Origin: a phage
Direction: 5' to 3' (one strand)
Sequence record: PZ386972.1
Length of the DNA stretch: 64,000 bases
In this document: positions 6,935-51,975 of the stretch, piece after piece
Numbering within the stretch: the first letter of the stretch is position 1
Layout: every line of letters begins with the position of its first letter
Made by a program: the position numbers and the translations under genes
The notes under the pieces: model-generated
Told to the model about the DNA's origin: nothing
The model's database searches: none
What the model saw: only the letters and a program-made list of their open reading frames with translations

Positions 6935-7420
6935 ATGGACCACAGAACAAGTATTGCACAAGCTATGGTTGACCGAATCTCTAAACAAATGGATGGTTCT
7001 CAACCTGACGAATATTTTAATAATCTATACGGAAACGTTTCTCGTCAAACTTATAAATTTGAGGAAATACGAGAGTTTCCTTATGTAGCAGTTCATATCG
7101 GAACTGAAACTGGGCAGTATCTTCCTTCAGGCCAACAGTGGATGTTTTTAGAACTTCCAATCCTGGTGTACGATAAAGAGAAAACAGACATTCAAGAGCA
7201 ACTTGAAAAACTCGTAGCGGATATAAAAACCGTTATTGACACAGGTGGAAATTTAGAATATACTGTTAGTAAACCTAATGGATCGACCTTCCCATGTGAG
7301 GCAACTGATATGATCATTACATCAGTTAGTACAGATGAGGGTCTACTGGCCCCATATGGTTTAGCAGAAATAAATGTAACAGTGAGGTATCAGCCTCCAC
7401 GTAGGTCACTTCGCAGATAA
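6935..7420 (+). CDS. tail completion / terminator protein (putative)
   Basis: 161-aa ORF immediately upstream of tail tube gene; synteny only. Confidence 0.4.
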   Translation: MDHRTSIAQAMVDRISKQMDGSQPDEYFNNLYGNVSRQTYKFEEIREFPYVAVHIGTETGQYLPSGQQWMFLELPILVYDKEKTDIQEQLEKLVADIKTVIDTGGNLEYTVSKPNGSTFPCEATDMIITSVSTDEGLLAPYGLAEINVTVRYQPPRRSLRR

Positions 7421-7446
7421 GTTACAGATTAGGAGAAAATAATTAA

Positions 7447-8841
7447 ATGTCTTTACAACTATTACGTAATACTCGAATCTTCGTGTCTACGGTTAAGACT
7501 GGTCATAATAAGACCAACACGCAAGAGATTCTAGTTCAGGATGATATTTCTTGGGGTCAGGACAGTAACTCAACAGATATTACTGTTAATGAGGCTGGTC
7601 CGCGTCCAACTCGTGGTTCTAAACGTTTTAACGACTCTTTAAACGCAGCTGAGTGGAGTTTCTCTACCTATATCCTGCCATATAAAGACAAAACTACTAA
7701 CAAACAAATTGTTCCTGACTATATGTTATGGCATGCACTTTCTAGTGGTAAAGCTATTAACCTAGAAGGTAATACGGGGGCACACAATAACGAAGCTAAC
7801 TTTATGGTTAACTTCAAAGATAACTCTTATCACGAGTTAGCAATGTTACACATTTATATTCTGACTGATAAAGCATGGAGTTATATCGATTCCTGTCAGA
7901 TTAATCAAGCAGAAGTTAACGTTGATATTGAAGATATTGGCCGTGTAACTTGGTCTGGTAATGGTAATCAGCTTATTCCTCTGGATGAGCAACCATTTGA
8001 CCCAGATGAAATAGGTATTGATGATGAAACTTACATGACTATCCAGGGTTCTTACATCAAGAACAAATTAACGATCCTTAAGATCAAGGACATGGATACC
8101 AATAAGTCTTACGACATACCAATTACCGGTGGTACTTTTACTATTAACAACAACATTACTTATCTAACACCTAATGTAATGTCCCGTGTTACTATTCCAA
8201 TTGGTTCCTTTACTGGTGCTTTTGAATTAACTGGTTCATTAACTGCTTATCTGAATGATAAATCTCTTGGTTCTATGGAACTGTATAAAGATCTTATCAA
8301 AACTCTGAAGGTAGTTAACCGCTTCGAAATAGCTCTAGTACTTGGTGGCGAGTATGAGGATGAACGTCCTGCAGCTATTCTGGTAGCCAAACAAGCGCAC
8401 GTTAATATTCCTACGATTGAGACTGATGATGTACTTGGTACATCAGTAGAGTTTAAGGCTATTCCGTCAGAGCTGGATGCAGGTGATGAGGGTTACTTAG
8501 GCTTCTCTAGTAAGTATACCAAAACAACTATTAATAACTTGATTGTTAATGGTAATGGTGCTACTGATGCTGTAACTGCAATTACTGTTAAATCTGCTGG
8601 TAATGTTACTACAGTAAACACTTCTGCCACTCTTCAGATGAGTGTTGAAGTTACTCCTTCTTCCGCAGAGAATAAGGAAGTTACTTGGGCTATCACTGCT
8701 GGTGATGCAGCTACTATCAGTGCAACAGGATTACTAAAAGCAGATGTTAGTAAAACTGGTGCAGTAACTGTAGAAGCTACTGCTAAAGATGGTTCTGGAG
8801 TTAAAGGCACTAAACAGATTACTGTAACAGCAGGTGGTTAA
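7447..8841 (+). CDS. tail tube protein with C-terminal Ig-like (Big_2-like) domain (pb6-like)
   Basis: 464-aa ORF; C-terminal TAITVKSAGNVTT...VTVEATAKDGSG...ITVTAGG Ig-like segment; RBS AGGAGAAAA upstream. Confidence 0.75.
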   Translation: MSLQLLRNTRIFVSTVKTGHNKTNTQEILVQDDISWGQDSNSTDITVNEAGPRPTRGSKRFNDSLNAAEWSFSTYILPYKDKTTNKQIVPDYMLWHALSSGKAINLEGNTGAHNNEANFMVNFKDNSYHELAMLHIYILTDKAWSYIDSCQINQAEVNVDIEDIGRVTWSGNGNQLIPLDEQPFDPDEIGIDDETYMTIQGSYIKNKLTILKIKDMDTNKSYDIPITGGTFTINNNITYLTPNVMSRVTIPIGSFTGAFELTGSLTAYLNDKSLGSMELYKDLIKTLKVVNRFEIALVLGGEYEDERPAAILVAKQAHVNIPTIETDDVLGTSVEFKAIPSELDAGDEGYLGFSSKYTKTTINNLIVNGNGATDAVTAITVKSAGNVTTVNTSATLQMSVEVTPSSAENKEVTWAITAGDAATISATGLLKADVSKTGAVTVEATAKDGSGVKGTKQITVTAGG

Positions 8842-10611: not shown

Positions 10612-10642
10612 GGCTCTGGGTGATTTGCCCAGAGCCTTTTTT
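10612..10642 (+). terminator. rho-independent terminator upstream of tape measure gene
   Basis: GGCTCTGGG-tgatttg-CCCAGAGCC hairpin followed by TTTTTT. Confidence 0.75.
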
Positions 10643-10659: not shown

Positions 10660-13600
10660 ATGACTGATAAGCTAATACGAGAACTACTAATAGACGTTAA
10701 ACAGAAGGGGGCAACTCGTACTGCAAAGTCTATTGAAAACGTATCTGATGCGTTAGAAAACGCTGCTGCTGCTTCCGAACTGACAAATGAGCAGTTAGGT
10801 AAAATGCCCAAAACCCTTTACTCCATTGAGAGGGCAGCGGATAGAGCAGCGAAAAGTCTTACTAAAATGCAAGCAAGCCGAGGTATGCTTAGTGTTACTA
10901 AATCTATAAATGATATAGGAGCTAAGTTAGATGATCTTGCTATCCAACTTATTGAAGTAACAGATAAGCTAGAAATTGGATTCGATGGAGTTTCTAGATC
11001 TGTTAAAGCAATGGGTAATGATGTTGCAGCTGCAACAGAGAAAGTTCAAGATAGATTGTATGACACCAATAGAGTTTTAGGCGGTACAGCTAGAGGTTTT
11101 AATGATACTGCTGGTGCCGCTGGTAGAGCTTCTAGAGCTATTGGTAATACTTCTGGTTCAGCGCGTGGTGCAACTCGTGATTTTGCAGCAATGGCTAAGA
11201 TCGGTGGTAGTTTACCTATTATGTACGCAGCCCTTGCTTCCAACATCTTCGTTTTGCAATCTGCATTTGAACAACTTAAACTAGGTGATCAGCTAAATCG
11301 TCTAGAAAAATTTGGTGTTATAGTAGGTACTCAGACAGGTACTCCTGTTCAGACCCTTGCTAGATCACTACAAGAAGCTGCTGGATATGCTATTTCTTTT
11401 GAGGAAGCAATGAGACAGGCATCTTCAGCATCTGCTTATGGATTTGATGCCGAACAACTTAATAAATTTGGTTTAGTAGCTCGTCGTGCGGCTGCTGTTC
11501 TTGGCGTTGATATGACTGATGCACTTAACCGTGTAATTAAGGGCGTATCTAAACAAGAAATCGAACTTCTGGATGAACTTGGTGTCACCATTCGTCTTAA
11601 TGACGCATATGCTGATTATGTTAAACAGTTAAACGCTGCAAACACAGGTATAACATATAATATTAATAGCCTTACTACCTTCCAGAAACAGCAAGCATAC
11701 GCTAACGCGGTAATTGCTGAATCTACTAAGCGGTTTGGCTACCTAGATGAAGTACTACGTGCAACTCCATGGGAGCAATTTGCTGCTAATGCAGATGCTG
11801 CACTAAGAAAAATACAACAAGCTGCTGCCAAGTATTTAGGGCCAGTAATTGATGCTATCAACACAGTATTTTATACATCTCAGGCTTCTATATCTGCTGA
11901 GGCAGCTAGAGCTCAAGAAAAAACTAATAGACAGATAGATCCTAATAATGTAGGTGCTGTTGCTTTAAGTTTAGCTGCTTCTGAAGAAGGCTATAATAAA
12001 GCTCTAGATATGTATAAGGAATCTCTTGATAAGCGTAATAAGCTAAAATCTGAGTTCGATAAACGAATGGAACAGGCAGATTTCTATACAAAACTAGCTA
12101 TACGTCAAGTTGGTGAAGGTATTCCTGTTGGTCTTGCAGCAGCAGGTGCTTCGGAGGCCAATAAGCAATTTGTAGCAGAAACTGCAGCTATGGGTCTACA
12201 AGTAACTAGACTTGGTAAGGAAGTAGAGGATTCTACAGAGAATCTCAATGCTTGGAAATCAGCGTATCAAGCTGCTGGGGCTGCTGCTGCAAAGGCTAGT
12301 CCAGAGTTTCAGAAGCAAATTAATCTCCAGAGAGATACTACTGATCCTGATGCTGTATACGATTTTAACTCTACTGTATTAAAAGGACTAACTGAGCAGC
12401 AGAAAGCGTACAATCAGACTAAGAAAACTGCTAGTGACTTAGCTAATGACTTTCAAAATATAGCTAGTAGCACAGATACTGCTGCTAAAACCAGTGCAAC
12501 TTTTGAAGAGGTAATTAAAAACATATCGTCTCTATCCGCAGGAACTGGTAAGAGTGCTGATGATTATGTTAAAAGCCTCAACTTAGGGTTTAACACTCTG
12601 TCTGAAATGAAAACTGCGTCTCAGGCCTTATCTGAGTACGTTAAACTAACTGGTAATGAGACTAAGAACCAGTTAGCAGTTCAACAGAAGATAGCGGATG
12701 TATATAACCAAACTAAGGATAAAGAAAAAGCACAGGAAGCTGGTAGACGTTTAGAGTTGCAACAGTTAGAAGAGCAAGAAACTGCTTTACGCCGTGTTCT
12801 TCAAACAAACCAGGGAAATAAAGCTGTTGAGAAAGAAATTGAAAAAATTCAGCTGGAGAAACTTAAACTTACCAATCAAGGTATGGAAGCTCAGAAGAAG
12901 GTCAAGAATTACACAGATAAAATTCTTGGTGTAGATCGTGAGATAGCTCTCTTAAATAACCGTACTATGACAGATACTCAGTATCGTCTAGCACAGTTAA
13001 ATCTTGAATTGACCATTGAAAAAGAGAAGTATGAATGGTATACAAAACAAGCTGATAAACAGAAAGAGGCAGAACAGTCTAGACGTGCTCAAGCCCAAAT
13101 TGAACGTGAAATCTGGAAATTCCGTCAGGATCAGATTGCTTCAATGGCTGCTGGTAGAGAGGAAGAACAGCAAAGACAATTTACTGCTAAACCATTAATG
13201 GGAAATGCGGAGCGCTTACAGGAACAGCTAAAATTATATGAAGACTTAAAGCAGAAAACATTAGGTAATGCTGCGGCACAAGCGGAGTATAATAAAAAGA
13301 TAGCTGAAACTAGGGCACAACTAGCAGGTTTAAGAGCACAGAGAAATGCGGATATGCAAACTTCTGTTGGGTCTTCTTTAGGTGCTGTGTACACTCCTAC
13401 AACTGGGCTATCTGGAGAGGATAAAGATTTTGCTGATATGCAGAATAGGATGTCTTCATATGACCAAGCAATTTCTAAACTATCTGAGTTAAATTCCGAA
13501 GCTACTGCTGTAGCTCAAAGCATGGGTAATTTAACTAATGCTATGATTCAGTTCTCCATGGGATCTTTAGATACTACTTCCACGATCGCAGCAGGTATGC

Positions 13601-14340
13601 AGACTGTAGCCTCTATGATTCAATATAGTACTAGCCAACAAGTTAGTGCAATTGATCAGGCTATTGCAGCAGAACAGAAACGAGATGGTAAATCTGAAGC
13701 CTCTAAAGCTAAACTGAAAAAGTTAGAAGCTGAAAAGTTAAAAATCCAGCAAGATGCAGCTAAGAAACAAATTATTATCCAGACAGCAGTAGCAGTAATG
13801 CAAGCGGCAACAGCTGTACCATACCCGTTCTCTATTCCTTTGATGGTGGCGGCAGGTTTAGCAGGTGCCTTAGCTCTTGCTCAAGCATCTTCTGCGTCTG
13901 GCATGTCTTCTATTGCAGATTCTGGAGCAGATACTACTCAGTATCTAACTCTAGGTGAGCGACAGAAGAACGTTGATGTATCTATGCAAGCTAGTTCAGG
14001 AGAACTATCCTACTTACGTGGTGATAAGGGTATTGGTAATGCCAATTCATTTGTTCCGCGTGCTGAGGGTGGTATGATGTACCCTGGAGTAAGCTATCAA
14101 ATGGGTGAGCATGGTACCGAAGTAGTAACTCCTATGGTTCCTATGAAAGCCACACCTAATGATCAGCTTTCCGATGGATCAAAGACTACCTCTGGAAGAC
14201 CAATCATTCTGAATATTAGCACAATGGATGCTGCTAGCTTTAGAGATTTTGCATCGAATAATAGCACTGCTTTAAGAGATGCCGTGGAACTGGCTCTTAA
14301 TGAGAATGGATCCACCCTTAAATCTCTTGGTAATATGTAA
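10660..14340 (+). CDS. tail tape measure protein (pb2-like)
   Basis: 1226-aa ORF, largely alpha-helical/coiled-coil with Ala/Gln-rich low complexity and hydrophobic segment near C-terminus. Confidence 0.85.
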   Translation: MTDKLIRELLIDVKQKGATRTAKSIENVSDALENAAAASELTNEQLGKMPKTLYSIERAADRAAKSLTKMQASRGMLSVTKSINDIGAKLDDLAIQLIEVTDKLEIGFDGVSRSVKAMGNDVAAATEKVQDRLYDTNRVLGGTARGFNDTAGAAGRASRAIGNTSGSARGATRDFAAMAKIGGSLPIMYAALASNIFVLQSAFEQLKLGDQLNRLEKFGVIVGTQTGTPVQTLARSLQEAAGYAISFEEAMRQASSASAYGFDAEQLNKFGLVARRAAAVLGVDMTDALNRVIKGVSKQEIELLDELGVTIRLNDAYADYVKQLNAANTGITYNINSLTTFQKQQAYANAVIAESTKRFGYLDEVLRATPWEQFAANADAALRKIQQAAAKYLGPVIDAINTVFYTSQASISAEAARAQEKTNRQIDPNNVGAVALSLAASEEGYNKALDMYKESLDKRNKLKSEFDKRMEQADFYTKLAIRQVGEGIPVGLAAAGASEANKQFVAETAAMGLQVTRLGKEVEDSTENLNAWKSAYQAAGAAAAKASPEFQKQINLQRDTTDPDAVYDFNSTVLKGLTEQQKAYNQTKKTASDLANDFQNIASSTDTAAKTSATFEEVIKNISSLSAGTGKSADDYVKSLNLGFNTLSEMKTASQALSEYVKLTGNETKNQLAVQQKIADVYNQTKDKEKAQEAGRRLELQQLEEQETALRRVLQTNQGNKAVEKEIEKIQLEKLKLTNQGMEAQKKVKNYTDKILGVDREIALLNNRTMTDTQYRLAQLNLELTIEKEKYEWYTKQADKQKEAEQSRRAQAQIEREIWKFRQDQIASMAAGREEEQQRQFTAKPLMGNAERLQEQLKLYEDLKQKTLGNAAAQAEYNKKIAETRAQLAGLRAQRNADMQTSVGSSLGAVYTPTTGLSGEDKDFADMQNRMSSYDQAISKLSELNSEATAVAQSMGNLTNAMIQFSMGSLDTTSTIAAGMQTVASMIQYSTSQQVSAIDQAIAAEQKRDGKSEASKAKLKKLEAEKLKIQQDAAKKQIIIQTAVAVMQAATAVPYPFSIPLMVAAGLAGALALAQASSASGMSSIADSGADTTQYLTLGERQKNVDVSMQASSGELSYLRGDKGIGNANSFVPRAEGGMMYPGVSYQMGEHGTEVVTPMVPMKATPNDQLSDGSKTTSGRPIILNISTMDAASFRDFASNNSTALRDAVELALNENGSTLKSLGNM

Positions 14341-14346
14341 TATTGG

Positions 14347-14374
14347 AGGAGGACTTTATGTCCTCCTTTTCTTT
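14347..14374 (+). terminator. rho-independent terminator after tape measure gene
   Basis: AGGAGGAC-tttat-GTCCTCCT hairpin followed by TTTTCTTT. Confidence 0.75.
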
Positions 14375-14389
14375 ATGGAAAAATAAAAA
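14372..14389 (+). other. conserved post-terminator motif TTTATGGAAAAATAAAAA, copy 3
   Basis: same motif family as 5636 and 10641. Confidence 0.45.
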
Positions 14390-14393
14390 TTTC

Positions 14394-14422
14394 TTGATAA
14401 AATTTTCCAATACTATTATAAT
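14394..14422 (+). promoter_or_regulatory. sigma70-consensus promoter (TTGATA, 17 bp, TATAAT) inside late operon, upstream of distal tail gene
   Basis: hexamers and spacing read directly; followed by AAAGAGGAGAAA RBS and ATG at 14450. Confidence 0.55.
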
Positions 14423-14449
14423 ATTGTTATTAAAGAGGAGAAATTAACT

Positions 14450-15064
14450 ATGAGACTACCAGATCCATACACGAACCCAGAATACCCAGGGTTAGGTTTT
14501 GAAAGCGTCAACGTAGTAGATAATGACCCTATGATTCGTGATGAATTACCTAATGGTAAAGTCAAAGAGGTTAAAATATCTGCTCAATACTGGGGAATTA
14601 ATATCTCATACCCGGAACTTTTCCCAGATGAATATGCGTTCCTAGATTCTAAAATTTTAGAATATAAAAGAACTGGAGATTATCTAGAAGTACTTCTACC
14701 TCAGTATGAAGCATTTAGAGTACGTGGTGATACTAAAAGTGTTAATATACCAGCAGGACAGAAAGGTTCCCAGATTATACTAAATACTAATGGAACCTTA
14801 ATAGGACTACCAAAAGCTGGAGACCTATTTAAGTTATCCAGTCACCCAAAAGTCTATAAAATAACAAACTTTACTAGCTCAGGAAATGTATGGAGCTTAT
14901 CCCTATACCCTGACCTATTTATTACTACTACGGGTAGTGAAAAACCAGTTTTTAATGGTATCCTATTTAGAACTAAGCTAATGAATGCTGATTCTTTTGG
15001 TTCTACATTAAATAACAATGGTACTTACTCTGGTATTTCACTTTCCTTGAGGGAAAGTCTATGA
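14450..15064 (+). CDS. distal tail protein (Dit, pb9-like)
   Basis: 204-aa ORF directly downstream of tape measure, upstream of large baseplate protein. Confidence 0.55.
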   Translation: MRLPDPYTNPEYPGLGFESVNVVDNDPMIRDELPNGKVKEVKISAQYWGINISYPELFPDEYAFLDSKILEYKRTGDYLEVLLPQYEAFRVRGDTKSVNIPAGQKGSQIILNTNGTLIGLPKAGDLFKLSSHPKVYKITNFTSSGNVWSLSLYPDLFITTTGSEKPVFNGILFRTKLMNADSFGSTLNNNGTYSGISLSLRESL

Positions 15065-17910
15065 AGCAGATACTCGATAGTGCTAAAACATATCTTAATA
15101 CTCATGACAAGCTAAAAACAGCTTGTCTTATAGCTTTAGAGCTTCCTAGCTCATCTGGTTCCGCAGCTACTTATATATACCTGACAGACTATTTTAGAGA
15201 TGTTACATATAATGGTATTTTGTACAGATCAGGTAAAGTAAAAAGTATAAGCTCTCATAAACAGAATCGTCAATTATCTATTGGTAGCTTATCTTTTACA
15301 ATAACTGGTACAGCAGAAGATGAAGTATTAAAACTAGTTCAAAATGGGGTATCTTTCTTAGATAGAACTATTACTATACATCAAGCGATAATTGATGAAG
15401 AAGGAAATATTCTTCCAGTAGATCCTAGTACAGACGGCCCTTTATTATTCTTCCGTGGTAGAATTACCGGAGGTGGAATAAAAGATAATGTTACTACTTC
15501 AGGGATAGGAACCTCTGTTATCACATGGAACTGTTCCAACCAGTTCTATGACTTTGATAGGGTGAATGGTCGTTATACCGATGATGCTTCTCATCGAGGA
15601 CTTGAAGTTGTTAATGGACAATTACAGCCTTCTAATGGGGCTAAACGTCCTGAATATCAAGAAGACTATGGATTCTTCCACTCTAATAAAAGTACCACTA
15701 TCTTAGCTAAGTATCAAGTAAAAGAAGAACGCTATAAACTTCAGTCCAAGAAGAAACTTTTTGGGCTATCAAGAAGTTACAGTCTTAAAAAGTATTATGA
15801 GACTGTAACTAAAGAAGTTGATTTAGACTTTAACTTAGCTGCTAAATTTATACCTGTTGTATATGGGGTTCAGAAAATTCCTGGTATACCTATTTTTGCA
15901 GATACTGAGCTAAATAACCCTAATATAGTGTATGTAGTCTATGCTTTTTCGGAAGGAGAAATCGATGGATTCCTAGATTTCTATATTGGGGACAGCCCAA
16001 TGATCTGTTTCGATGAAATGGATTCCAATGCTAGAACCTGCTTCGGTCGTAAGAAACTAGTGGGTGATACAATGCATAGACTAGCTGCTGGTACAAGCAC
16101 GTCTCAACCTTCTGTTCATGGTCAGGAGTATAAGTATAATGATGGTAATGGTGACATAAGAATATGGACTTTTCATGGAAAACCAGACCAGACAGCAGCT
16201 CAAGTATTAGTGGATATTGCTAAAAGAAAAGGTTTCTATTTACAGAATCAAAATGGCAATGGACCAGAATACTGGGATTCTCGTTATAAGCTCTTAGACA
16301 CAGCCTACGCTGTAGTTAGATTTACTATTAATGAGAATAGAACTGAAATTCCAGAAATTAGTGCTGAAGTACAAGGTAAGAAAGTCAAAGTATATAGTTC
16401 TGACGGTACTGTAAAAGCAGATAAAACTAGTCTAAATGGTATCTGGCAACTTATGGATTACCTGACTTCAGATCGTTACGGGGCTAATATAACTCTAGAC
16501 CAGTTCCCTCTACAAAAGATTGTATCAGAAGCAAAAATACTTGATATAATTGATGAGTCCTATCAGGTTAGTTGGCAACCTTACTGGCGTTACGTTGGAT
16601 GGAGTGATTCTATATCTGAACATCGTCAAGTAGTTCAATTAAACACCATACTAGATACTTCTGAATCAGTTTTTAAAAACGTTCAAGGTATATTAGAATC
16701 ATTTGGTGGGGCTATAAATAACCTGTCAGGTGAGTATAGGATAACAGTAGAAAAACATTCTACAACTCCACTAAAAATAGGTTTTCTAGACACTTATGGT
16801 GACTTAGACTTATCTGATACTACTGGTAGAAATAAATTTAACTCAGTACAAGCATCCCTAGTAGACCCTGCGCTAAGTTGGAAAACAAACTCTATTACAT
16901 TCTATAACTCTAAGTTTAAAGAACAAGATAAGGGTCTGGATAAAAAACTTCAGCTATCTTTTGCAAATATTACTAACTACTATACTGCTAGGAGTTACGC
17001 AGATAGAGAACTTAAGAAATCTAGATACTCCCGTACTTTAAGTTTTTCTGTACCATATAAATTTATAGGTATAGAGCCTAACGATCCTATTGCTTTCACA
17101 TATGAACGTTATGGCTGGAAAGATAAATTCTTCCTGGTTGACGAAGTAGAAAATACTCGTGATGGTAAAATTAATCTAGTCCTCCAAGAGTATGGAGAAG
17201 ATGTATTTATTAATTCCGAGCAGGTAGATAATAGTGGTAATGATATTCCTGATATTAGTAATAACGTTCTACCTCCTAGAGACTTTAAGTACACTCCTAC
17301 TCCAGGTGGCGTAGTTGGTGCTATAGGCAAAAATGGGGAACTATCTTGGCTACCTAGTCTTACTAATAACGTAGTATATTATTCTATAGCTCATTCAGGT
17401 CATGTAGATCCTTACATAATTCAGCAATTAGAGAATAATCCTAATGAAAGGATGATTCAGGAGATTATAGGTGAGCCTGCTGGTTTAGCTATTTTTGAAC
17501 TACGTGCTGTTGATATTAATGGTAGACGTAGCTCTCCTGTTACTCTTTCCGTGGATCTTAACTCTGCTAGAAACTTGAGTGTAGTTAGTAACTTCAGAGT
17601 AACTAATACAGCTTCTGGAGATGTAACCGAATTTGTTGGTCCAGATGTGAAACTTGCTTGGGATAAGATACCTGAGGAAGAAATAATTCCAGAAATCTAT
17701 TACACTCTAGAAATACATGATTCTCAGGATAGAATGCTTCGTAGTATTAGGATAGAGGATGCCTATACCTATGACTATCTATTAACATATAATAAGGCGG
17801 ATTTTGCACTATTAAACTCCGGTGCTTTAGGAATTAATCGTAAACTACGATTTAGGATTAGAGCAGAGGGGGAAAATGGTGAGCAATCTGTTGGTTGGGC
17901 TACTATTTAA
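15061..17910 (+). CDS. baseplate hub / tail tip protein (pb3-like)
   Basis: 949-aa ORF, start overlaps Dit stop; size and position. Confidence 0.65.
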   Translation: MKQILDSAKTYLNTHDKLKTACLIALELPSSSGSAATYIYLTDYFRDVTYNGILYRSGKVKSISSHKQNRQLSIGSLSFTITGTAEDEVLKLVQNGVSFLDRTITIHQAIIDEEGNILPVDPSTDGPLLFFRGRITGGGIKDNVTTSGIGTSVITWNCSNQFYDFDRVNGRYTDDASHRGLEVVNGQLQPSNGAKRPEYQEDYGFFHSNKSTTILAKYQVKEERYKLQSKKKLFGLSRSYSLKKYYETVTKEVDLDFNLAAKFIPVVYGVQKIPGIPIFADTELNNPNIVYVVYAFSEGEIDGFLDFYIGDSPMICFDEMDSNARTCFGRKKLVGDTMHRLAAGTSTSQPSVHGQEYKYNDGNGDIRIWTFHGKPDQTAAQVLVDIAKRKGFYLQNQNGNGPEYWDSRYKLLDTAYAVVRFTINENRTEIPEISAEVQGKKVKVYSSDGTVKADKTSLNGIWQLMDYLTSDRYGANITLDQFPLQKIVSEAKILDIIDESYQVSWQPYWRYVGWSDSISEHRQVVQLNTILDTSESVFKNVQGILESFGGAINNLSGEYRITVEKHSTTPLKIGFLDTYGDLDLSDTTGRNKFNSVQASLVDPALSWKTNSITFYNSKFKEQDKGLDKKLQLSFANITNYYTARSYADRELKKSRYSRTLSFSVPYKFIGIEPNDPIAFTYERYGWKDKFFLVDEVENTRDGKINLVLQEYGEDVFINSEQVDNSGNDIPDISNNVLPPRDFKYTPTPGGVVGAIGKNGELSWLPSLTNNVVYYSIAHSGHVDPYIIQQLENNPNERMIQEIIGEPAGLAIFELRAVDINGRRSSPVTLSVDLNSARNLSVVSNFRVTNTASGDVTEFVGPDVKLAWDKIPEEEIIPEIYYTLEIHDSQDRMLRSIRIEDAYTYDYLLTYNKADFALLNSGALGINRKLRFRIRAEGENGEQSVGWATI

Positions 17911-19995
17911 ATGATTTCAAATAATGCACCAGCTAAAATGGTCCTAAATAGCGTCTTAACTGGATATACGTTGGCGTATATCCAGCATTCTATCTACTCT
18001 GATTATGACGTTATAGGCAGGTCTTTTTGGCTTAAAGAAGGTAGCAACGTTACTCGTAGAGATTTTACTGGGGTTGATACCTTCTCTGTAACTATTAATA
18101 ACCTAAAACCTACAACAACTTATGAAGTTCAGGGTGCATTTTATGATTCTATAATAGACTCTGAACTGCTTAATGCTCAGATAGGTATTAATCTATCTGA
18201 TAAACAAACTTTTAAAATGAAATCAGCACCTAGAATTACAGGTGCTAGGTGTGAATCAGAGCCTGTAGACGTAGGTGTTGGAGCGCCAATAGTTTATATA
18301 GATACTACAGGAGAAGCTGATTATTGTACTATAGAATTAAAAAATAATTCTAATGCTAATAATCCGTGGGTTAAATATTACGTTGGTGCACTAATGCCAA
18401 CTATTATGTTCGGTGGCGTGCCAATCGGATTCTATAAAGTAAGAATTTCTGGTCAAATAAGCCTACCAGACGGTGTTACTATTGATTCATCTGGATACTA
18501 TGAGTATCCTACTGTCTTTGAAGTTAATTATAATTTTGTTCCTCCTACCGCACCCACTAATATTGAGTTTAAAGCAGCGCGCATTGCAGACGGTAAAGAA
18601 CGCTATGATTTACGTGTGCAATGGGATTGGAATAGAGGCACAGGTGCTAACGTTCGTGAATTCGTTCTATCTTATATAGCTTCAGCAGAATTTGCTAGAA
18701 CTGGATGGACTAAGGCACAAAAAATCAACGTGGGGGCTGCTCAGTCGGCAACAATTATATCATTCCCATGGAAAGTAGAGCATAAATTTAAAGTGTCATC
18801 TATTGCTTGGGGACCAGGTGCTCAAGATGTTATCGATTCCGCAGTACAGACATTTATGCTAAAGGAGGATACTCCACTAGATAACAGTTTTGTAAATGAA
18901 ACTGGTATTGAAGTAAACTACGCGTACATTAAAGGCAAGATCAAAGATGGTTCTACCTGGAAACAAACCTTCTTAATAGATGCTGCCACCGGTGCTATTA
19001 ATATAGGTCTTCTAGATGCTGAAGGAAAAGCACCAATATCTTTTGACCCTATTAAAAAGATAGTTAACGTTGATGGAAGTGTAATAACTAAAACTATTAA
19101 CGCTGCTAACTTTGTCATGACTAATTTAACCGGTCAAGATAACCCAGCAATTTATACTCAAGGCAAAACTTGGGGTGATACAAGATCTGGTATCTGGATG
19201 GGTATGGATAATGCTACTGCTAAACCAAAACTGGATATTGGCAATGCTACCCAGTACATTCGTTACGACGGTGATACATTAAGAATCTCTAGTGGGGTTG
19301 TAATTGGTACACCTAACGGTGACATCGATATAGCAACAGGTATACAAGGTAAGCAAACAGTGTTTATCTATATTCTAGGAACCTCACTACCTGCTAAGCC
19401 TACAAGCCCTGCATATCCACCTTCAGGTTGGTCAAAAACTCCACCTAATAGAACATCTAATACTCAAAATATTTACTGTTCTACAGGTACCTTAGATCCT
19501 GTTACTAATCAATTAGTATCTGGAACTAGTTGGTCAGATGTGGTTCAATGGAGTGGTACAGAAGGTGTTGATGGTAGGCCAGGAGCTGATGGAAAACCAG
19601 GGACAGACGGACAACGTGGTCCTGGAATGTATTCTCTTGCTATTGCAAATTTAACCGCATGGAATGATTCTCAGGCTAATTCGTTTTTTACGTCTAACTT
19701 TGGTACTGGTCCTGTTAAATATGATGTATTAACCGAGTATAAAAGTGGGGCACCAGGAACAGCGTTTACTAGACAGTGGAATGGTTCAGCATGGGCTAGC
19801 CCTGCAATGGTTTTACATGGTGATATGATAGTTAATGGTACAGTAACTGCTAGTAAAATTGTTGCTAATAACGCTTTCTTATCACAAATTGGTGTAAATA
19901 TTATATATGATCGTGCAGCAGCACTATCCTCTAATCCAGAGGGATCTTACAAAATGAAGATAGACCTGCAAAACGGGTATATCCATATAAGGTAA
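17911..19995 (+). CDS. tail tip protein with collagen-like Gly-X-Y stretch (pb4-like)
   Basis: 694-aa ORF; [21 protein letters not shown] motif; ATG overlaps previous stop. Confidence 0.6.
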
Positions 19996-19999
19996 AATA

Positions 20000-20422
20000 A
20001 TGAGTACAGAAAATAGAGTTATTGATTTAGTAGTAGACGAAAACGTACCTTATGGTTTACTTATGCAATTTATGGATGTAGATGATAGTGTTTATCCTGC
20101 TACATCTAAGCCAGTAGATCTTACTGGCTTCTCTCTTAGAGGAAGTATTAAAAGTAGTTTAGAAGATGGGGCTGAAAATTTAGCATCTTTTACTACATCT
20201 ATTATTGATGCGAATCAAGGAGTAGCATCCATAAGTCTACCTGTTAGTGCCGTAACTACTATTGCATCTAAAGCATCCAAAGAAAGGGACAAGTATAACC
20301 CTAGACAAAGGCTAGCTGGATACTATGATGTTATAATTACTAGAACAGCCGTTGGTAATGCTGCTAGCTCTTTCCGTATTATGGAAGGCAAAGTTTATAT
20401 TAGCGATGGGGTAACTCAATAA
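20000..20422 (+). CDS. collar / fibre attachment protein (putative)
   Basis: 140-aa ORF between tail tip protein and long fibre gene. Confidence 0.45.
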
Positions 20423-23400
20423 TGGCTATAACTAAAATAATCTTACAACAAATGGTCACCATGGACCAAAATAGTATAACTGCAAGTAAATATCCTAAGT
20501 ATACGGTTGTACTTTCTAATTCCATTAGCTCTATTACAGCAGGAGAACTAACTGCCGCTATAGAATCCTCTAAAGCTTCTGCTGCAGCAGCTAAACAATC
20601 TGAGATTAATGCTAAGCAGTCAGAGTTAAATGCCAAAGATTCTGAGAATGAGGCAGAAATTTCTGCAGCATCTTCCCAGCAATCTGCAACTCAGTCTGCT
20701 TCTTCTGCTACTGCTTCTGCTAATAGTGCTAAAGCTGCAAAAACTTCAGAAACCAATGCAAAAGCTAGTGAGACGGCTGCAAAAACTTCAGAAACCAATG
20801 CAAAAGCTAGTGAAACAGCAGCTAAAACTTCTGAGACCAATGCTAATAGTAGCAAAACTGCTGCTGCTGCATATGCTTCCGCAGCAAAAACCTCAGAAAC
20901 TAATGCTGCTGCATCTGCTTCTGCCGCTAAAACTTCTGAAACTAACGCTAATAGTAGTAAAACTGCTGCTGCTAACAGTGCTAATGCTGCTAAAGTATCA
21001 GAAACTAATGCTAAAACTTCGGAAACTAATGCAGCTGCTTCAGCTACTAAAGCTGAAAATGTAGCTTCCGGCATGAGAGATTCTATAGGCCTAGGTAATT
21101 CAGCTCGTGATTGCCCAGATATTTCTGGTAATCCTTCTGCATACATTGGTTTTATGCGTATTCGTGAAGGTGTGCCTGGATGGCCTTCTATTGCTGATGG
21201 GGAGGCGTATTTAACTGGTGTTATTTCTGCTAATGACGGTTCTCCTTCCTACACTGGTATTTTTCAGGGATGGGGTAGTCGCTCATTATACACGTATCGT
21301 TGGGCAAGCAATCTAGGCCCTCAATGGACACGTCACGCTCGTAAAGACGAGGTAAATAGACTTGTACAGATAGCGAATGACCAAACTAGATTATATGCTG
21401 GCAATGGTACTACATACATAGAAGTGGGCAATAATAGGGCTTGGGGAGTATATGACTCTGTACTCAATAAGTGGCAACCGCTGGCTATAGCTCAGGGCGG
21501 TACAGGTGGAATTACAGATATAGAGGCACGTACCAACCTGAGACTGGGGGTAAACGATAGCCCACAATTTGCAAACCTTAATCTTGTAAGATCTTCAGAT
21601 GTAGCAACTACGGCAGGAGGTATTCTACAAAGCATCCTCAGTGATACAACAGGGGTGCAGAGGACACGCTGCCGCTTTTACTCAGAATTACGTGGTGATG
21701 ATAAAGCATGGGGAACTATTCATCTTCAAAAAGGTGACAAAAATCAATATGCTGGATTAAATGAGGACGGAGACTTCTCTCTAAATAGTGGAGATTTTAT
21801 TGGTAGAAGAGTAAAATTAAGTGCCAATTTTAGTTATCCAGTAGAGATAACAAGTGCTCATCCTACTATCAGATTCAACGAAAGTGATCGTCCAGCAAAT
21901 ACACCTTATTACAGCTTTGTTTTTGACGGAGGTAATTGGCGTATCCAAAAAGACGGTTATGACGGTACAAAAAGTAGTAATGCTATTAGCTATAACTATG
22001 CAAGGGATGAAATAGAAATTCCAAATCTCAAGGTTAATGCTATTGCCACCCCCGTAAATCTTACACAGACAAAAACAAATCTGCAAATACCATTTACTGG
22101 TTTAGCTCGTTGGACTGATTATAATGCTCCTGCAGGAGCTGAAGCTAAAAAATATTATCCTGTAATTATAAGCCATCCATTATACTACAATGGTGATTTC
22201 CTTGTTGAAGTTGCTATGAGAACTAAATCTATAACTGGAAGTGAGGAACCTAACTGTAATGCTATTCATTTATGGATTAGAGATGCTGGATGGTCTGACA
22301 TGGGTGCAGCAGTATTTGGTCACTATTTCTGCTATGCTAAAAACGAAAATGCTATCCTATGTGTTCGAGGTACTGATAAGGGTCAGTATCCTCATAATGC
22401 AATTTATGTTCGCGGAGACGCTTTTCCTATTAGGCTTGCTACAACTGTTGGTTGCATTGTAACCATACCTACATCTGACTGGAAGCCTTCAACTGCAGCA
22501 GATAGTCCTACATACAAATGGGGTATCTCAAACTCAGGAGAGGGTATTGATCTTGATACCTACGGCATCAGTAATAATTTGCTTGATTTTACAGCAAGTG
22601 CAACAGGATTTTATTGTACTGATACATACCGCAATAAATATGGTGATTCCTACCAAGTAATATCGGCAAATGGCACCATCCAGCCAGCTAATGGCGTTGC
22701 AACATACTTAAATCAAGATTGGAACACTCAGCATACAGATGGAGTAAATAAGTTTAAACCTATTGCTGGACAAGTAAACTCACCGGAAAATGGAATTGTT
22801 TATGCCGGTTTTCACACCAGTTTTAGTGAAAGTTATGCTACCCAACTTGCAGGACGTAATTCTAGATTCTGGGTAAGAAGTATTGAAGCTGGGGAAAGTA
22901 AAGAATGGTTAAAACTTATTACTGCTACATTAGCTCCTAAAATTCCTACAGATGCACGAGATGGTTTCATCAGTGATAACGCAGGAGACACCTCTTGGGC
23001 TCCTAGCAATGGTGGGGGCTTTCAGGCTAGTTATGCCGAAAACCGCATTATGCAGAGCTGGATTGATAGTGCTGGAAGATTATACAGCAGATTTCTAACA
23101 ACTAATCAGCCTACAACTTCGAAAACGGATGTTCCCTGGAAAAGTGCTGCGATGCTAGAGCTGGATAACCGCTTTACTGGTAATAATACCTTTATTGGGG
23201 ATATTTTATGTAGCGCTTCAAACCCACTTACTCTTAAGTCTGCAAATCCTACGTTATCCTTTGTGGAGTCTGACGTAGATAACTCTACATACATGTTTGT
23301 AGCAGATGGTGGTGGTTTTAGGCTTAATATGGACAATACTGGAGGTGCGGAAATATTTAACTACAGCCGTTCCCAGAATAATCTTAAACTTGGTGTAAGT

Positions 23401-24069
23401 TCTTATTTTACTCTAAATACTAGATTTGATCAGGGATGGACATCTAGAGGTTCTGTAGATGTAACTACTACGGGGTATAGTACCGTTACTATTACTACAA
23501 CATCCTCAACTAATGGTGTTGGTGCACGTAACCAATTTGAGGTTAACCCGAGTACTAATCAGTTCTACTTAGCTAGACGTAATAGGAGCGACCTTACAGG
23601 GCAATGGATCATAAATTTCCCTTCAGCTGGCGGTACTCTAGCACTTAGTGGTACATCAGATATTAACTATAAGACTAATATAGAAGAATACGATGGTATT
23701 CATTCCATAGAAAATATTAAGGCTATGGATCTTGTTACTTTTGTATTTAAGGACGATGAGAAAAAACGTACTCGCAGAGGGGTTATTGCTCAGCAAATCG
23801 AGCAAATAGATCCTACATACGTTAAACATACATATGAACCATGCGGGGAACCTATTGTTGATGATGATGGGATCATTCAAGGGTATACTGATACAAAAGA
23901 AAGGGTTGTTTTAGATAATAACGTACTTTTACTAGATGCACTGTGTGCCATAAAAGTACTAGCACAACGTGATGAGGAGAAAACTGAACGTATTAATAAA
24001 CTTGAGAAAGATGTAGAAGATTTGAAAACTGTAGTAGAGCATTTATTGACTACTATGAAAAATAGTTAA
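20422..24069 (+). CDS. L-shaped tail fibre with C-terminal intramolecular chaperone (S74-like autoprocessing) domain
   Basis: 1215-aa ORF; N-terminal tandem AKTSETNAKASET repeats; C-terminal GTSDINYK...IAQQIEQIDPTYV...coiled coil typical of auto-cleaved chaperone domains. Confidence 0.8.
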   Translation: MAITKIILQQMVTMDQNSITASKYPKYTVVLSNSISSITAGELTAAIESSKASAAAAKQSEINAKQSELNAKDSENEAEISAASSQQSATQSASSATASANSAKAAKTSETNAKASETAAKTSETNAKASETAAKTSETNANSSKTAAAAYASAAKTSETNAAASASAAKTSETNANSSKTAAANSANAAKVSETNAKTSETNAAASATKAENVASGMRDSIGLGNSARDCPDISGNPSAYIGFMRIREGVPGWPSIADGEAYLTGVISANDGSPSYTGIFQGWGSRSLYTYRWASNLGPQWTRHARKDEVNRLVQIANDQTRLYAGNGTTYIEVGNNRAWGVYDSVLNKWQPLAIAQGGTGGITDIEARTNLRLGVNDSPQFANLNLVRSSDVATTAGGILQSILSDTTGVQRTRCRFYSELRGDDKAWGTIHLQKGDKNQYAGLNEDGDFSLNSGDFIGRRVKLSANFSYPVEITSAHPTIRFNESDRPANTPYYSFVFDGGNWRIQKDGYDGTKSSNAISYNYARDEIEIPNLKVNAIATPVNLTQTKTNLQIPFTGLARWTDYNAPAGAEAKKYYPVIISHPLYYNGDFLVEVAMRTKSITGSEEPNCNAIHLWIRDAGWSDMGAAVFGHYFCYAKNENAILCVRGTDKGQYPHNAIYVRGDAFPIRLATTVGCIVTIPTSDWKPSTAADSPTYKWGISNSGEGIDLDTYGISNNLLDFTASATGFYCTDTYRNKYGDSYQVISANGTIQPANGVATYLNQDWNTQHTDGVNKFKPIAGQVNSPENGIVYAGFHTSFSESYATQLAGRNSRFWVRSIEAGESKEWLKLITATLAPKIPTDARDGFISDNAGDTSWAPSNGGGFQASYAENRIMQSWIDSAGRLYSRFLTTNQPTTSKTDVPWKSAAMLELDNRFTGNNTFIGDILCSASNPLTLKSANPTLSFVESDVDNSTYMFVADGGGFRLNMDNTGGAEIFNYSRSQNNLKLGVSSYFTLNTRFDQGWTSRGSVDVTTTGYSTVTITTTSSTNGVGARNQFEVNPSTNQFYLARRNRSDLTGQWIINFPSAGGTLALSGTSDINYKTNIEEYDGIHSIENIKAMDLVTFVFKDDEKKRTRRGVIAQQIEQIDPTYVKHTYEPCGEPIVDDDGIIQGYTDTKERVVLDNNVLLLDALCAIKVLAQRDEEKTERINKLEKDVEDLKTVVEHLLTTMKNS
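20734..21040 (+). repeat. tandem 42-bp (14-aa) repeats within fibre N-terminus
   Basis: two near-identical units at about 20734-20775 and 20776-20817 followed by degenerate copies; produces spurious low-complexity ORFs on other frames. Confidence 0.7.
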
Positions 24070-24075
24070 AATATA

Positions 24076-24113
24076 AAAAGAAACCCCAGCGGACAAAATC
24101 CGCTGGGGTTTTT
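24076..24113. terminator. bidirectional rho-independent terminator between convergent fibre gene and early operon
   Basis: CCCCAGCGGA-caaaa-TCCGCTGGGG hairpin flanked by A-run and T-run. Confidence 0.8.
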
Positions 24114-30679: not shown

Positions 30680-30762
30680 CTAAAATTTTTATTTTTCTGC
30701 TTAGGACTTTCTTATCAATCCGAAACTTTCTCTCTCAAATTTATGTATATATTATACATCAT

Positions 30763-32115
30763 TTATGAGCTGTTGCCAAATGCAATTTTAGCTAATTGAA
30801 CTGCTTTCTCAGGAGTCATGGTAATAGTTTTCCACCCGTTGTTACGATATACTGCCATACGTCCAGAAGCCTGTCTTAGTCCAGTGCCGCCTTTCATAAT
30901 TAGATCTACAACAATAGGGTCGAGTTTACCATCGACAATACGTTGAACACGACCTGCAAGCTGTTCAATGAGAGACTCATTATTAATAAGACTTCCCATT
31001 ATTAAACAAGACAACTCATTAAGAGAAATACCCTCAGAGAAGATACTTTGAGCTGCTGCAAGTACACAAGGGCCGCCTTTTGCTATATCTTCCTGAATTT
31101 TTAATCGGTCATCCAAGTGGGTTGCCCCTATAATTTCATGTGTTGTAACACCACGCTGTGCGAGAGCTTCTAGTACTGTTTGGATTAACTCTGTTCTGTC
31201 ACTTACAATGAGTACTTTATGCCCCATATTCACGTATAAATGTGCTAAGTTTATAATGGTTTCTCGATACTCAGGATGATTATATACATCATTAGCACGT
31301 AATGCCCACGGTACGTTTTGGTTTCCTGATAACTCAACAGGCACGGAGTACCTATGGATTGTAGGTGCAACAGTATTATTAACTGGTGGGCTAAATATCT
31401 TATATCCGAAGAAATCTTTGAACATAACCTGTAAACCATCTTTTCGTTTTAGTGTACCGGATAGTCCAATTTTATAGCGAGCACATGATATTTCTAGGAA
31501 ATTAGTGAAAGTTGTAGCCACACAATGGTGAACCTCATCAACTATAACAGTACCGAATACTTTAGAAAGATTATTCGCATGTTTATTCACTGTTTGAATA
31601 TTACTGACTACAATTGGTGGATCAATATTGTATTTCCCAGAACCTATAATGCCCGGTTCAAACCCAAACCATTTACGAACTTCTGCCGCCCACATTTCAC
31701 GAATGGATGTATTCGTACAGATTACCAAAGTTTTCTGGCCAAATTTATACGCAAGTGCAAGGGCTAGGATAGTTTTACCAAACCCAGGCTTACCATTAAT
31801 AATACAGGTATCATCGCACTCTTCATATATTGGGAGCTGGTCTTCTTCACGCAGCTTGAACTTAGGTTTTGGTATATCTACCGGAGCTAATGTACGTTTA
31901 TCTACTAATTCGTATTTTACTCCTTTAGCATCTAATAAATCCAGACGCGTGATAGGAATCCACTTAATCTCTTTAGCAACAACACCACTATTCTTATACA
32001 TAATAGGGTATTTACTAGTCATTGTCTCTATGTGATAAGTGGTTTGCTTACTACAATAATCCCAAAGTTCATCATCGGGCTTGAAATAGGCTTTATTAGA
32101 TATAACAACCTTCAT
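30763..32115 (-). CDS. SF2 DNA helicase (DEAH-type; D10-like branch-migration helicase)
   Basis: 450 aa; Walker A GKPGFGKT and IVDEVHH DExH box. Confidence 0.8.
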   Translation of the reverse strand: MKVVISNKAYFKPDDELWDYCSKQTTYHIETMTSKYPIMYKNSGVVAKEIKWIPITRLDLLDAKGVKYELVDKRTLAPVDIPKPKFKLREEDQLPIYEECDDTCIINGKPGFGKTILALALAYKFGQKTLVICTNTSIREMWAAEVRKWFGFEPGIIGSGKYNIDPPIVVSNIQTVNKHANNLSKVFGTVIVDEVHHCVATTFTNFLEISCARYKIGLSGTLKRKDGLQVMFKDFFGYKIFSPPVNNTVAPTIHRYSVPVELSGNQNVPWALRANDVYNHPEYRETIINLAHLYVNMGHKVLIVSDRTELIQTVLEALAQRGVTTHEIIGATHLDDRLKIQEDIAKGGPCVLAAAQSIFSEGISLNELSCLIMGSLINNESLIEQLAGRVQRIVDGKLDPIVVDLIMKGGTGLRQASGRMAVYRNNGWKTITMTPEKAVQLAKIAFGNSS

Positions 32116-39723: not shown

Positions 39724-39752
39724 AGTATATACCTAAGCGGCGAAAATGTCAA
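39724..39752 (-). promoter_or_regulatory. second promoter in ligase spacer (TTGACA, 17 bp, TATACT)
   Basis: consensus -35 hexamer with 17-bp spacer read on minus strand. Confidence 0.5.
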
Positions 39753-49962: not shown

Positions 49963-51837
49963 TTATTTAGCTCGAATATCCTGATGTTTCACCCTACCCA
50001 TAACTTCATGTTGTTTGCCGGGGTTAAATGGACGAGCACCCGGATTTCCAAGATACCCACAAACTCGACGAGTTACTTCAAGAGTTTCTGGGTCATGATT
50101 ACCACAGATAGGGCACTTAAATCCATCTTCGGATGCTATTGTTTCACCTAAGAATCCACATTTACCACAAGAATCTACTGGAGTATTAATACCGAAGTAA
50201 TGAACCTTACTAGCAGCATAATTAATAACCCATTCGAGTGCATCTGGGAATCGTTTCATATCCGGTAGTTCTACATAGGAAATACACCCACCAGAAGCAA
50301 TCGGAGTAAAGTTAGATTCATAATCAAATTTCACGTTAGGAGCAACTTTACGTTCTACATCAAGGTGATGCGAGTTAGTATAGTATCCTTTGGACAGAAT
50401 ATCTTCATGCTCCGGGAAATATTCACGATCTAGACGACAAAAACGGTCACATAGGGACTCTGATGGTGTAGCATACAGGCTATAACCTAACTTAGTTTCT
50501 TCCTTCTTCTGATCTACCCTATCCCGCATGTACTGCAGTACACGCTGAACAAACTTGATGCAGGTCTCGGACATTGTGTCTATATCTTTGCCAAACATGA
50601 ACTGTAGCATTTCATGGCAACCAATATACCCTAGAGATACAGAAGCACGGTTATAGAAATGATCGAATACGTATTCATCAGGCTCCAAGCGCAGTCCAAA
50701 GGCTCCTGACATATAGAGGATGGGTGCAGCTTTAGCTTGAATGTATTTTAAGCGATCAACTCTCCACTCCAATGCTTTTAACGCTGTATCCACACGTAGC
50801 TCAAGCAAATCAAAGAATAGGTCAATATTTCCTTCAGCTTCGATAGCAATTCTAGGCAAGTTTACAGAAACAACACCTAAGTTATTACGACCGGCAGTTT
50901 CACCATCTTCTGTAGCAGCTAGGAATGAACGGCAGCCCATAGAAACTTTGTAGTCTCCAGTAACTTCTACAACTTTGTCATAGCTGATATAATCTGGATA
51001 CATACGTTCAGCAGTACATTTCATAGCTAACTTCTTGATGTCATAATTAACATCTCCTGGTTTCATATTTACGCCATCACGAAGCACAAATACCAGTTTC
51101 GGGAAGATAGCTGTACGTTTATTGATACCTAAACCATCCATGCGTACTTTCAGTATTGCTTTCTGTACTAGACGTGCTTCCCAAGAAGTTCCTAGACCAA
51201 AACCAAAGGTAATAAATGGACTCTGACCATTAGAGTTGAACATCGTATTGATTTCATACTCTAGACCCTGACAAGCATCATAGACTTCTTTTTCAGTCAT
51301 CTCCGTAGCCATTACTGATGCTTTGGCTTCATCCTTAGTCCAACGTTTTGCAAAGGCATGATTTTTGTCATAGGATTTACGAACATAAGGAGCTAATACC
51401 TCATCTAATCGGTCTACAGAAGTACCACCATACTGATGGGAGCTAACCTGTGTGATAATCTGAGCTGTAATAGCCGCCGCAGTAGTAATAGAGTTTGGAG
51501 TACTAATTTCAGCATTACCAACCTTCATACCATTCTTCAACATATCTTCCAGAGCTACCAGACAACAATTAGTCATGCCTAATGCAGCATAATCAGCATC
51601 ATGGAAATGAATATCCCCAATCATATGAGCATTTCGAATCTGAATTGGCATTTCTTCTAGAATCAGATACTTACTCAATTCACCTGCAAGCATATCCCTC
51701 TGTGTAGGGAAACGTTCTGAGGGTTTATTGGCATTATTAAACAGCAGCTCTTCATCTGCTGACCCTTCGATAATCTCTTTGCAGTTTCTAATTAACGCCT
51801 GCATTTCTTTATACTTTAGTTCTTCATTGCGATTCAT
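49963..51837 (-). CDS. nrdD: anaerobic ribonucleoside-triphosphate reductase (class III, glycyl radical)
   Basis: 624 aa; C-terminal RVCGYLG glycyl-radical motif and CxxC zinc ribbon (CGKCG ... CPICG). Confidence 0.9.
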   Translation of the reverse strand: MNRNEELKYKEMQALIRNCKEIIEGSADEELLFNNANKPSERFPTQRDMLAGELSKYLILEEMPIQIRNAHMIGDIHFHDADYAALGMTNCCLVALEDMLKNGMKVGNAEISTPNSITTAAAITAQIITQVSSHQYGGTSVDRLDEVLAPYVRKSYDKNHAFAKRWTKDEAKASVMATEMTEKEVYDACQGLEYEINTMFNSNGQSPFITFGFGLGTSWEARLVQKAILKVRMDGLGINKRTAIFPKLVFVLRDGVNMKPGDVNYDIKKLAMKCTAERMYPDYISYDKVVEVTGDYKVSMGCRSFLAATEDGETAGRNNLGVVSVNLPRIAIEAEGNIDLFFDLLELRVDTALKALEWRVDRLKYIQAKAAPILYMSGAFGLRLEPDEYVFDHFYNRASVSLGYIGCHEMLQFMFGKDIDTMSETCIKFVQRVLQYMRDRVDQKKEETKLGYSLYATPSESLCDRFCRLDREYFPEHEDILSKGYYTNSHHLDVERKVAPNVKFDYESNFTPIASGGCISYVELPDMKRFPDALEWVINYAASKVHYFGINTPVDSCGKCGFLGETIASEDGFKCPICGNHDPETLEVTRRVCGYLGNPGARPFNPGKQHEVMGRVKHQDIRAK

Positions 51838-51866: not shown

Positions 51867-51895
51867 ATTATAACTCATTCGAGGGCGGATGTCAA
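51867..51895 (-). promoter_or_regulatory. consensus sigma70 promoter for nrdD (TTGACA, 17 bp, TATAAT)
   Basis: perfect hexamers with 17-bp spacer read on minus strand; RBS GAAGGAGAG. Confidence 0.7.
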
Positions 51896-51946: not shown

Positions 51947-51975
51947 TTGCCAATTTCTATTAAAAATTGTATAAT
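51947..51975 (+). promoter_or_regulatory. early promoter (TTGCCA, 17 bp, TATAAT), first of two upstream of phoH
   Basis: read directly; divergent from nrdD promoter. Confidence 0.5.

Follow-up and report, generated by a model that had tools for sequence, protein, structure and literature searches.

A terminator–promoter module matching T5 late promoter PG25 at the junction of the tape measure and distal tail genes in a T5-like phage

We analysed a 64,000-nt stretch of phage DNA (record PZ386972.1), referred to below as the window. It derives from a T5-like phage (Demerecviridae, Tequintavirus) and shares 97–98% identity with numerous T5-like phages infecting Salmonella or E. coli; its nearest relatives are the Salmonella phages SE11 and NBSal005 (~98%). 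The locus considered here is a 109-nt gap between the tape measure gene, with which the upstream late unit ends, and the gene for the distal tail protein, whose product is 94% identical to T5 pb9. The features of the gap and of the surrounding structural genes are as follows:

10660–14340, plus strand: gene for the tape measure/pore-forming tail tip protein, orthologue of T5 pb2 (D18-19/pb2), 1226 aa (PHROG 3779, E = 0)
14345–14376, plus strand: putative intrinsic (rho-independent) terminator, a hairpin at 14345–14369 followed by TTTTCTTTA (terminator scan)
14379–14393, plus strand: A/T-rich tract AAAAATAAAAATTTC abutting the –35 hexamer on its 5′ side, putative UP element
14394–14399, plus strand: –35 hexamer TTGATA, 5 of 6 positions of the consensus TTGACA (sequence reading and consensus scan)
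14400–14416, plus strand: 17-nt spacer AAATTTTCCAATACTAT, of optimal length for sigma70 (consensus scan)
14417–14422, plus strand: –10 hexamer TATAAT, 6 of 6 consensus positions, including the key A2 and T6
14429, plus strand: predicted transcription start (A), 7 nt past the –10 hexamer; the leader would be 21 nt long
14433–14440, plus strand: Shine-Dalgarno sequence AAGAGGAG, its core 9 nt ahead of the ATG at 14450
14450–15064, plus strand: gene for the distal tail protein, orthologue of T5 pb9, 204 aa (PHROG 1302, E = 3e-61; T5 annotation)
15061–17910, plus strand: gene for pb3, baseplate hub (this and the next three genes from the open reading frame list, PHROG and T5 annotation)
17911–19995, plus strand: gene for pb4, straight fibre
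20000–20422, plus strand: gene for p132, collar
20422–24069, plus strand: gene for pb1, L-shaped tail fibre
24081–24111, acting in both directions: intrinsic terminator with a 14-bp stem, predicted to close the pb9–pb1 unit and a converging early unit

The initial annotation had described TTGATA, a 17-nt spacer and TATAAT followed by a ribosome-binding site, and both its coordinates and its description proved exact when the sequence was read and scanned for consensus matches. The element at 14394–14422 agrees with the sigma70 consensus at 11 of 12 positions at the optimal 17-nt spacing, and has all that is expected of a sigma70 promoter: a –35 hexamer, a –10 hexamer and a spacer within 17 ± 1 nt. 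The A/T tract at 14379–14393 is likely to be an UP element, putatively contacted by the C-terminal domains of the RNA polymerase alpha subunits; UP elements are marked in T5 promoters according to the legend of Fig. S5 of a study of T5 transcription (PMC7472727).

To estimate how often such matches arise by chance, 100 dinucleotide-preserving shuffles of the 64 kb (both strands) served as a window-wide null. Sites with at least 11 of 12 matches number 6 in the window, against 2.27 ± 1.59 in the shuffles. Since about 2.3 sites of this quality are expected window-wide, a single such match somewhere in the window is unremarkable. Within the gap itself (24% G+C, coding strand), a match of at least 11/12 arose in only 7 of 5000 gap shuffles. 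Weak matches (at least 9/12) are depleted over the 18-kb late region (37 versus 55.9 ± 6.8 expected), and the only 11/12 sites found there, 14394–14422 and 7236–7264, both correspond to annotated T5 promoters (PG25 and PJ5, respectively). A 17-nt spacer, the optimal length, is shared by all six top-scoring promoter-like sites of the window.

About 25 nt upstream of the promoter lies a hairpin that was absent from the initial annotation. It starts 5 nt past the tape measure stop codon, has a G+C-rich stem of 9–10 bp and folds with –17 kcal/mol (z = –3.67 versus shuffles). Records of T5, BB1 and Lindwurm mark the same hairpin as a terminator, with the wording ‘putative rho-independent’ in NC_005859. 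Among 28 T5-like genomes its stems are invariant and its loop is variable, and pairing is kept where the stem does change, through G-U to A-U in phiR2-01 and through a compensatory A-T to G-C in Klebsiella phage SEL21, although such informative changes are few. A stable hairpin, an immediate U-run and maintained pairing together point to 14345–14376 as a putative intrinsic terminator.

With a putative intrinsic terminator just upstream, PG25 would head its own 9.7-kb unit, running from the distal tail gene, its first gene, to the terminator at 24081–24111. Genes of this unit overlap or abut, with intergenic gaps of at most 4 nt, and the T5 homologue of the closing site bears the annotation ‘efficient bidirectional rho-independent transcription terminator’. 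The promoter had initially been regarded as embedded in the late structural operon. Its location at the pb2/pb9 junction stands, but the hairpin at 14345–14369 would make it the start of a separate unit.

A further strong terminator-like hairpin (11 bp, 10612–10636, plus strand), followed by TTTTTTATTG, was noticed between the tail chaperone and tape measure genes. The consensus scan revealed no promoter-like site on its 3′ side; thus, expression of the tape measure gene seems to require read-through, and the region can reasonably be read as one of attenuation followed by re-initiation. In T5, a gene for an HNH endonuclease (T5.141) is located between the corresponding terminator and pb2; this gene is absent from the window.

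The whole gap, as part of a longer segment (14341–14470), is 100% identical to T5 (NC_005859, AY692264). In both T5 records this stretch is labelled ‘promoter P-G 25’ (92013–92087 in NC_005859), just past the terminator. The 75-nt T5 feature aligns to window positions 14374–14448, which fits a span from –55 to +20 with +1 at 14429, and the PJ5 feature (7216–7290 of the window) obeys the same rule. A start at A14429 is thus what we infer from the annotated span. PG25 was reportedly first identified by Gentz and Bujard in 1985, by in vitro transcription, and its in vivo strength is said to have been placed by Deuschle et al. in 1986 at roughly 19 times that of the bla promoter. A third record, AY303686, annotates a –35 signal ‘of promoter G25’ and cites Gentz & Bujard 1985, J. 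Bacteriol. 164:70, M11609.

PG25 has also been followed in infected cells. Klimuk et al. (2020) applied multiplex primer extension to RNA from T5-infected cells and found that PG25 and PJ5 products appear 30 min post infection and then accumulate, which corresponds to late kinetics (PMC7472727). Both products were ~5-fold lower in an amber mutant of gpT5.026, a polymerase-binding protein (PMC7472727). The promoters tested in that work had previously been identified by in vitro transcription; host sigma70 polymerase reads all T5 gene classes, and the mechanism of class switching is called unknown there (PMC7472727). Two checks suggested with the initial annotation have therefore already been carried out on this sequence in T5. 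Mapping of transcription starts during infection yielded a PG25 5′-end from 30 min onward (PMC7472727), a test that the promoter passed, and in vitro transcription had been done earlier for the identical T5 promoter (as stated through PMC7472727 and the GenBank annotation). The proposal that the tail-tip and fibre genes can be transcribed independently of the head and tail genes likewise finds support in the published work on T5 PG25, whose gap is identical. That the promoter serves to adjust stoichiometry is a possible, putative role.

We then compared variation in the gap with that of its surroundings, using 28 T5-like genomes and 600 flanking coding positions. In the flanks 223 of 600 positions are variable, and third-codon positions are variable at 76–78%, while only 12 of the 109 gap positions vary (P = 1.6e-8 versus flanking coding sequence). 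No variation at all was detected in the two hexamers (0/12), in the A/T tract (0/15) or from the Shine-Dalgarno sequence to the ATG (14433–14449, 0/17). The A/T tract and promoter taken together vary at 2 of 44 positions; both are in the spacer, at 14408 (C/T) and 14412 (A/C), leaving 15 of its 17 positions invariant. Gap variation is confined to two bases past the stop codon, the hairpin loop, one base of the T-run, these two spacer bases, and the discriminator with the early leader, that is, to places where function predicts tolerance. A pattern scan of IMG/VR returned the same 28 contigs and no added variation. The distribution of changes suggests that the gap is under strong purifying selection.

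Conservation extends beyond close relatives. Both hexamers are kept in more distant Markadamsvirinae (Yersinia phage phiR2-01, oldekolle, Lindwurm and KPP2018), and Klebsiella phage SEL21 has TTGAAA-17-TATAAT, with an unchanged –10 hexamer. Homologues of the distal tail protein occur in ~900 records. A common layout, consisting of the stop codon, a GC hairpin and T-run, a site resembling a sigma70 promoter, a ribosome site and the ATG, is shared by 6–7 sampled relatives (Klebsiella phage SEL21, Vibrio phages Ceto, JSF10, VCPH and D239, and an IMG/VR contig), in which the gap sequence itself has diverged; distal tail proteins of the distant relatives sampled are 40–63% identical. Promoter-like sites of these relatives score 9–11 of 12, with shuffle probabilities of 0.003–0.052 in four of six. 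In JSF10 and VCPH the best site scores only 9/12 and, taken alone, is no better than chance (P = 0.35 and 0.10, respectively). Neither the family-wide terminator–promoter layout nor selection at the pb2/pb9 junction was found described in the papers searched, and a literature search found no Cappable-seq or transcription-unit maps of T5-like phages.

We conclude, with a probability of roughly 0.93, that the element is the orthologue of T5 late promoter PG25 and forms the second half of a compact terminator–promoter module at the pb2/pb9 junction. It is identical in sequence to PG25 and has the same position, after the pb2 terminator and ahead of pb9-pb3-pb4-p132-pb1. Function and late timing in the window phage are carried over from T5 by sequence identity and should be read as predicted.

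An alternative that we consider improbable is that the promoter is functional but minor, with the distal tail genes expressed mainly by read-through across a leaky hairpin at 14345–14369. The position of the tape measure gene, which lies behind the terminator at 10612–10636 with no promoter after it, makes terminator read-through seem a part of late expression. On the other hand, the PG25 transcript is readily detected in T5-infected cells and accumulates late (PMC7472727). Moreover, the hexamers, the A/T tract and the terminator stems are invariant next to synonymous sites of which about three quarters vary, and the terminator–promoter pair recurs in distant relatives. We argue from this invariance and recurrence that both the terminator and the promoter matter. 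The live alternative is thus quantitative only and concerns the shares of downstream expression contributed by read-through and by PG25.

Very little speaks for the gap being conserved because it encodes a small product, either a 29-aa open reading frame at 14358–14447 (MSSFSLWKNKNFLIKFSNTIIILLLKRRN) or a small RNA. Such a frame is present and is preceded by GGAGGAGGA; some records annotate a hypothetical protein here, and an equivalent small coding sequence is annotated in Klebsiella phage SEL21. Yet 19 of 29 T5-like sequences have GAG in place of its ATG, five genomes carry a 1-nt deletion at 14431 that would put it out of frame, and what looks like its Shine-Dalgarno sequence is formed by the 5′ arm of the terminator hairpin. 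With its start lost in so many relatives and a frameshifting deletion in some, the frame was rejected as a gene. An RNA product could be suggested by a sub-threshold match to the Rfam family ctRNA_pND324 at 14341–14423 (27.8 bits, gathering score 45, E = 0.04). No Rfam family reached its threshold in 14200–14600, and this match and one to SraG (18.9 against 50 bits), both far under their gathering scores, were taken as chance.

The least credible alternative, a chance consensus match in an A+T-rich gap with no promoter function, could appeal to the low G+C content of the gap and to the number of sites expected in 64 kb on both strands, but it is opposed by the rarity of such matches in local shuffles, by hexamers that are invariant in 28 genomes and by identity to a characterised T5 promoter, for which primer extension refuted this reading.

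Taking the element as the PG25 orthologue, we propose the following sequence of events. Upstream late transcripts, such as those from PJ5 (7236–7264), would end or be attenuated at 14345–14376, as the sequence suggests. Host sigma70 polymerase would then bind TTGATA-17-TATAAT, recognition by the E. coli enzyme having been published for T5, probably with the assistance of the A/T tract at 14379–14393 as an UP element. Initiation near A14429 would give a 21-nt leader carrying what is presumably a very efficient ribosome-binding site. Judging by gene packing and the positions of terminators, a single mRNA of ~9.7 kb may encode pb9, pb3, pb4, p132 and pb1 and end at 24081–24111. The promoter is predicted to fire only late; the published T5 data place its activity from 30 min and show it ~5-fold lower without gpT5.026.

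Several known systems are related to this arrangement. T5 PG25 has the same sequence, the same pb2/pb9 junction, the same preceding terminator and the same downstream genes, and differs only as an isolate. PJ5 is also a late sigma70-type promoter with an 11/12 match and a 17-nt spacer, located in the same structural region and showing the same late kinetics in T5. It differs in lying inside the tail terminator gene, with neither a directly upstream terminator nor a long A/T tract. In the window PJ5 occupies 7236–7264 (plus strand, TTGACA-17-TATACT), 183 nt ahead of the major tail protein gene, and 7181–7460 is identical to T5. PN25 and the ‘T5 promoter’ of pQE vectors resemble PG25 in being very strong A+T-rich promoters for unmodified host sigma70 polymerase (PMC7472727), but they are pre-early/early promoters and belong to another temporal class. 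The match between pQE vectors and PG25 concerns the leader and ribosome site rather than the promoter. In phage late operons generally, an intrinsic terminator followed by a promoter splits the structural block into units of separate dosage. Compared with such general punctuation, the pair described here is conserved family-wide at one gene junction, from phages of E. coli and Salmonella to those of Klebsiella and Vibrio.

PG25 is already known: it has been cloned and sequenced, carries a GenBank annotation and has been tracked by primer extension in infection. Hence, the element matters little as a discovery. The present analysis makes modest additions, namely the putative terminator, by which PG25 would become the start of a separate unit and not an internal promoter, the signs of purifying selection, and the family-wide layout. 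The question raised is not whether the promoter works but how a near-consensus promoter of host type stays silent until late. Conservation of the A/T tract, the spacer and the distance to the terminator exceeds what sigma70 needs. It is a speculative idea, and a doubtful one, that the invariance of the A/T tract and spacer, the fixed short distance to the terminator and a layout kept out to Vibrio phages mark the site or context of a T5 late-switch factor. If this were true, the pb2/pb9 junction would be an entry point to the early-to-late switch of T5-like phages.

The study of T5 transcription points to the discriminator as what distinguishes the two classes of T5 promoters: early ones have ATATT in it and late ones do not (PMC7472727). 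Here the discriminator reads ATTGTT. The discriminator and early leader (14423–14432) occur in two alternative versions among T5-like genomes, ATTGTTATTA and AATTGTATCT, and represent the only fast-changing part of the terminator–promoter module.

The stretch 14429–14452, ATTAAAGAGGAGAAATTAACTATG, comprises the predicted PG25 leader and the start codon of pb9. Exactly this sequence forms the ribosome-binding region located 3′ of the EcoRI site in vectors of the pQE type and in pCA24N (ASKA library). Roche/Qiagen documents reportedly describe the ‘synthetic’ RBSII as designed after the ribosome site of PG25; if RBSII does derive from PG25, Met-Arg at the start of the MRGS-His tag would correspond to pb9 residues 1–2. 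The vector sequence used for this comparison was taken from printed primers (PMC11880969, PMC6116040). In one T5-like IMG/VR genome (IMGVR_UViG_2974606035), a 24-nt deletion at 700–706, equivalent to window positions 14430–14453, takes out both the Shine-Dalgarno sequence and the start codon (ATG) of the distal tail gene and keeps the promoter. An essential tail gene lacking a start codon is odd; the deletion could be an assembly error or could have occurred between short TTA repeats.

The other top-scoring sites lie outside the late region. Two of them, 51867–51895 (minus strand, 12/12) and 51947–51975 (plus strand, 11/12), stand back to back where gene orientation and GC skew switch, and both have 17-nt spacers. 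The 12/12 site is followed by a ribosome-binding site and the ATG of a 624-aa gene (49963–51837). The pair are probably divergent early promoters. Two more 11/12 sites with 17-nt spacers, 39724–39752 and 30751–30779 (both minus strand), are oriented with the minus-strand early genes. Downstream of the former there is a Shine-Dalgarno-like sequence with a nearby ATG; the latter has a purine-rich leader, with no ATG within 45 nt downstream.

Some database records of related sequences carry unexpected names. T5-like sequences are filed as Listeria phage LM 4-14-1, Campylobacter phage A148 and Corynebacterium phage CPphiVTCCBPA_418, probably through contamination or mislabelling. The record of Klebsiella phage KPP2018 labels its distal tail protein gene ‘DNA polymerase I’.
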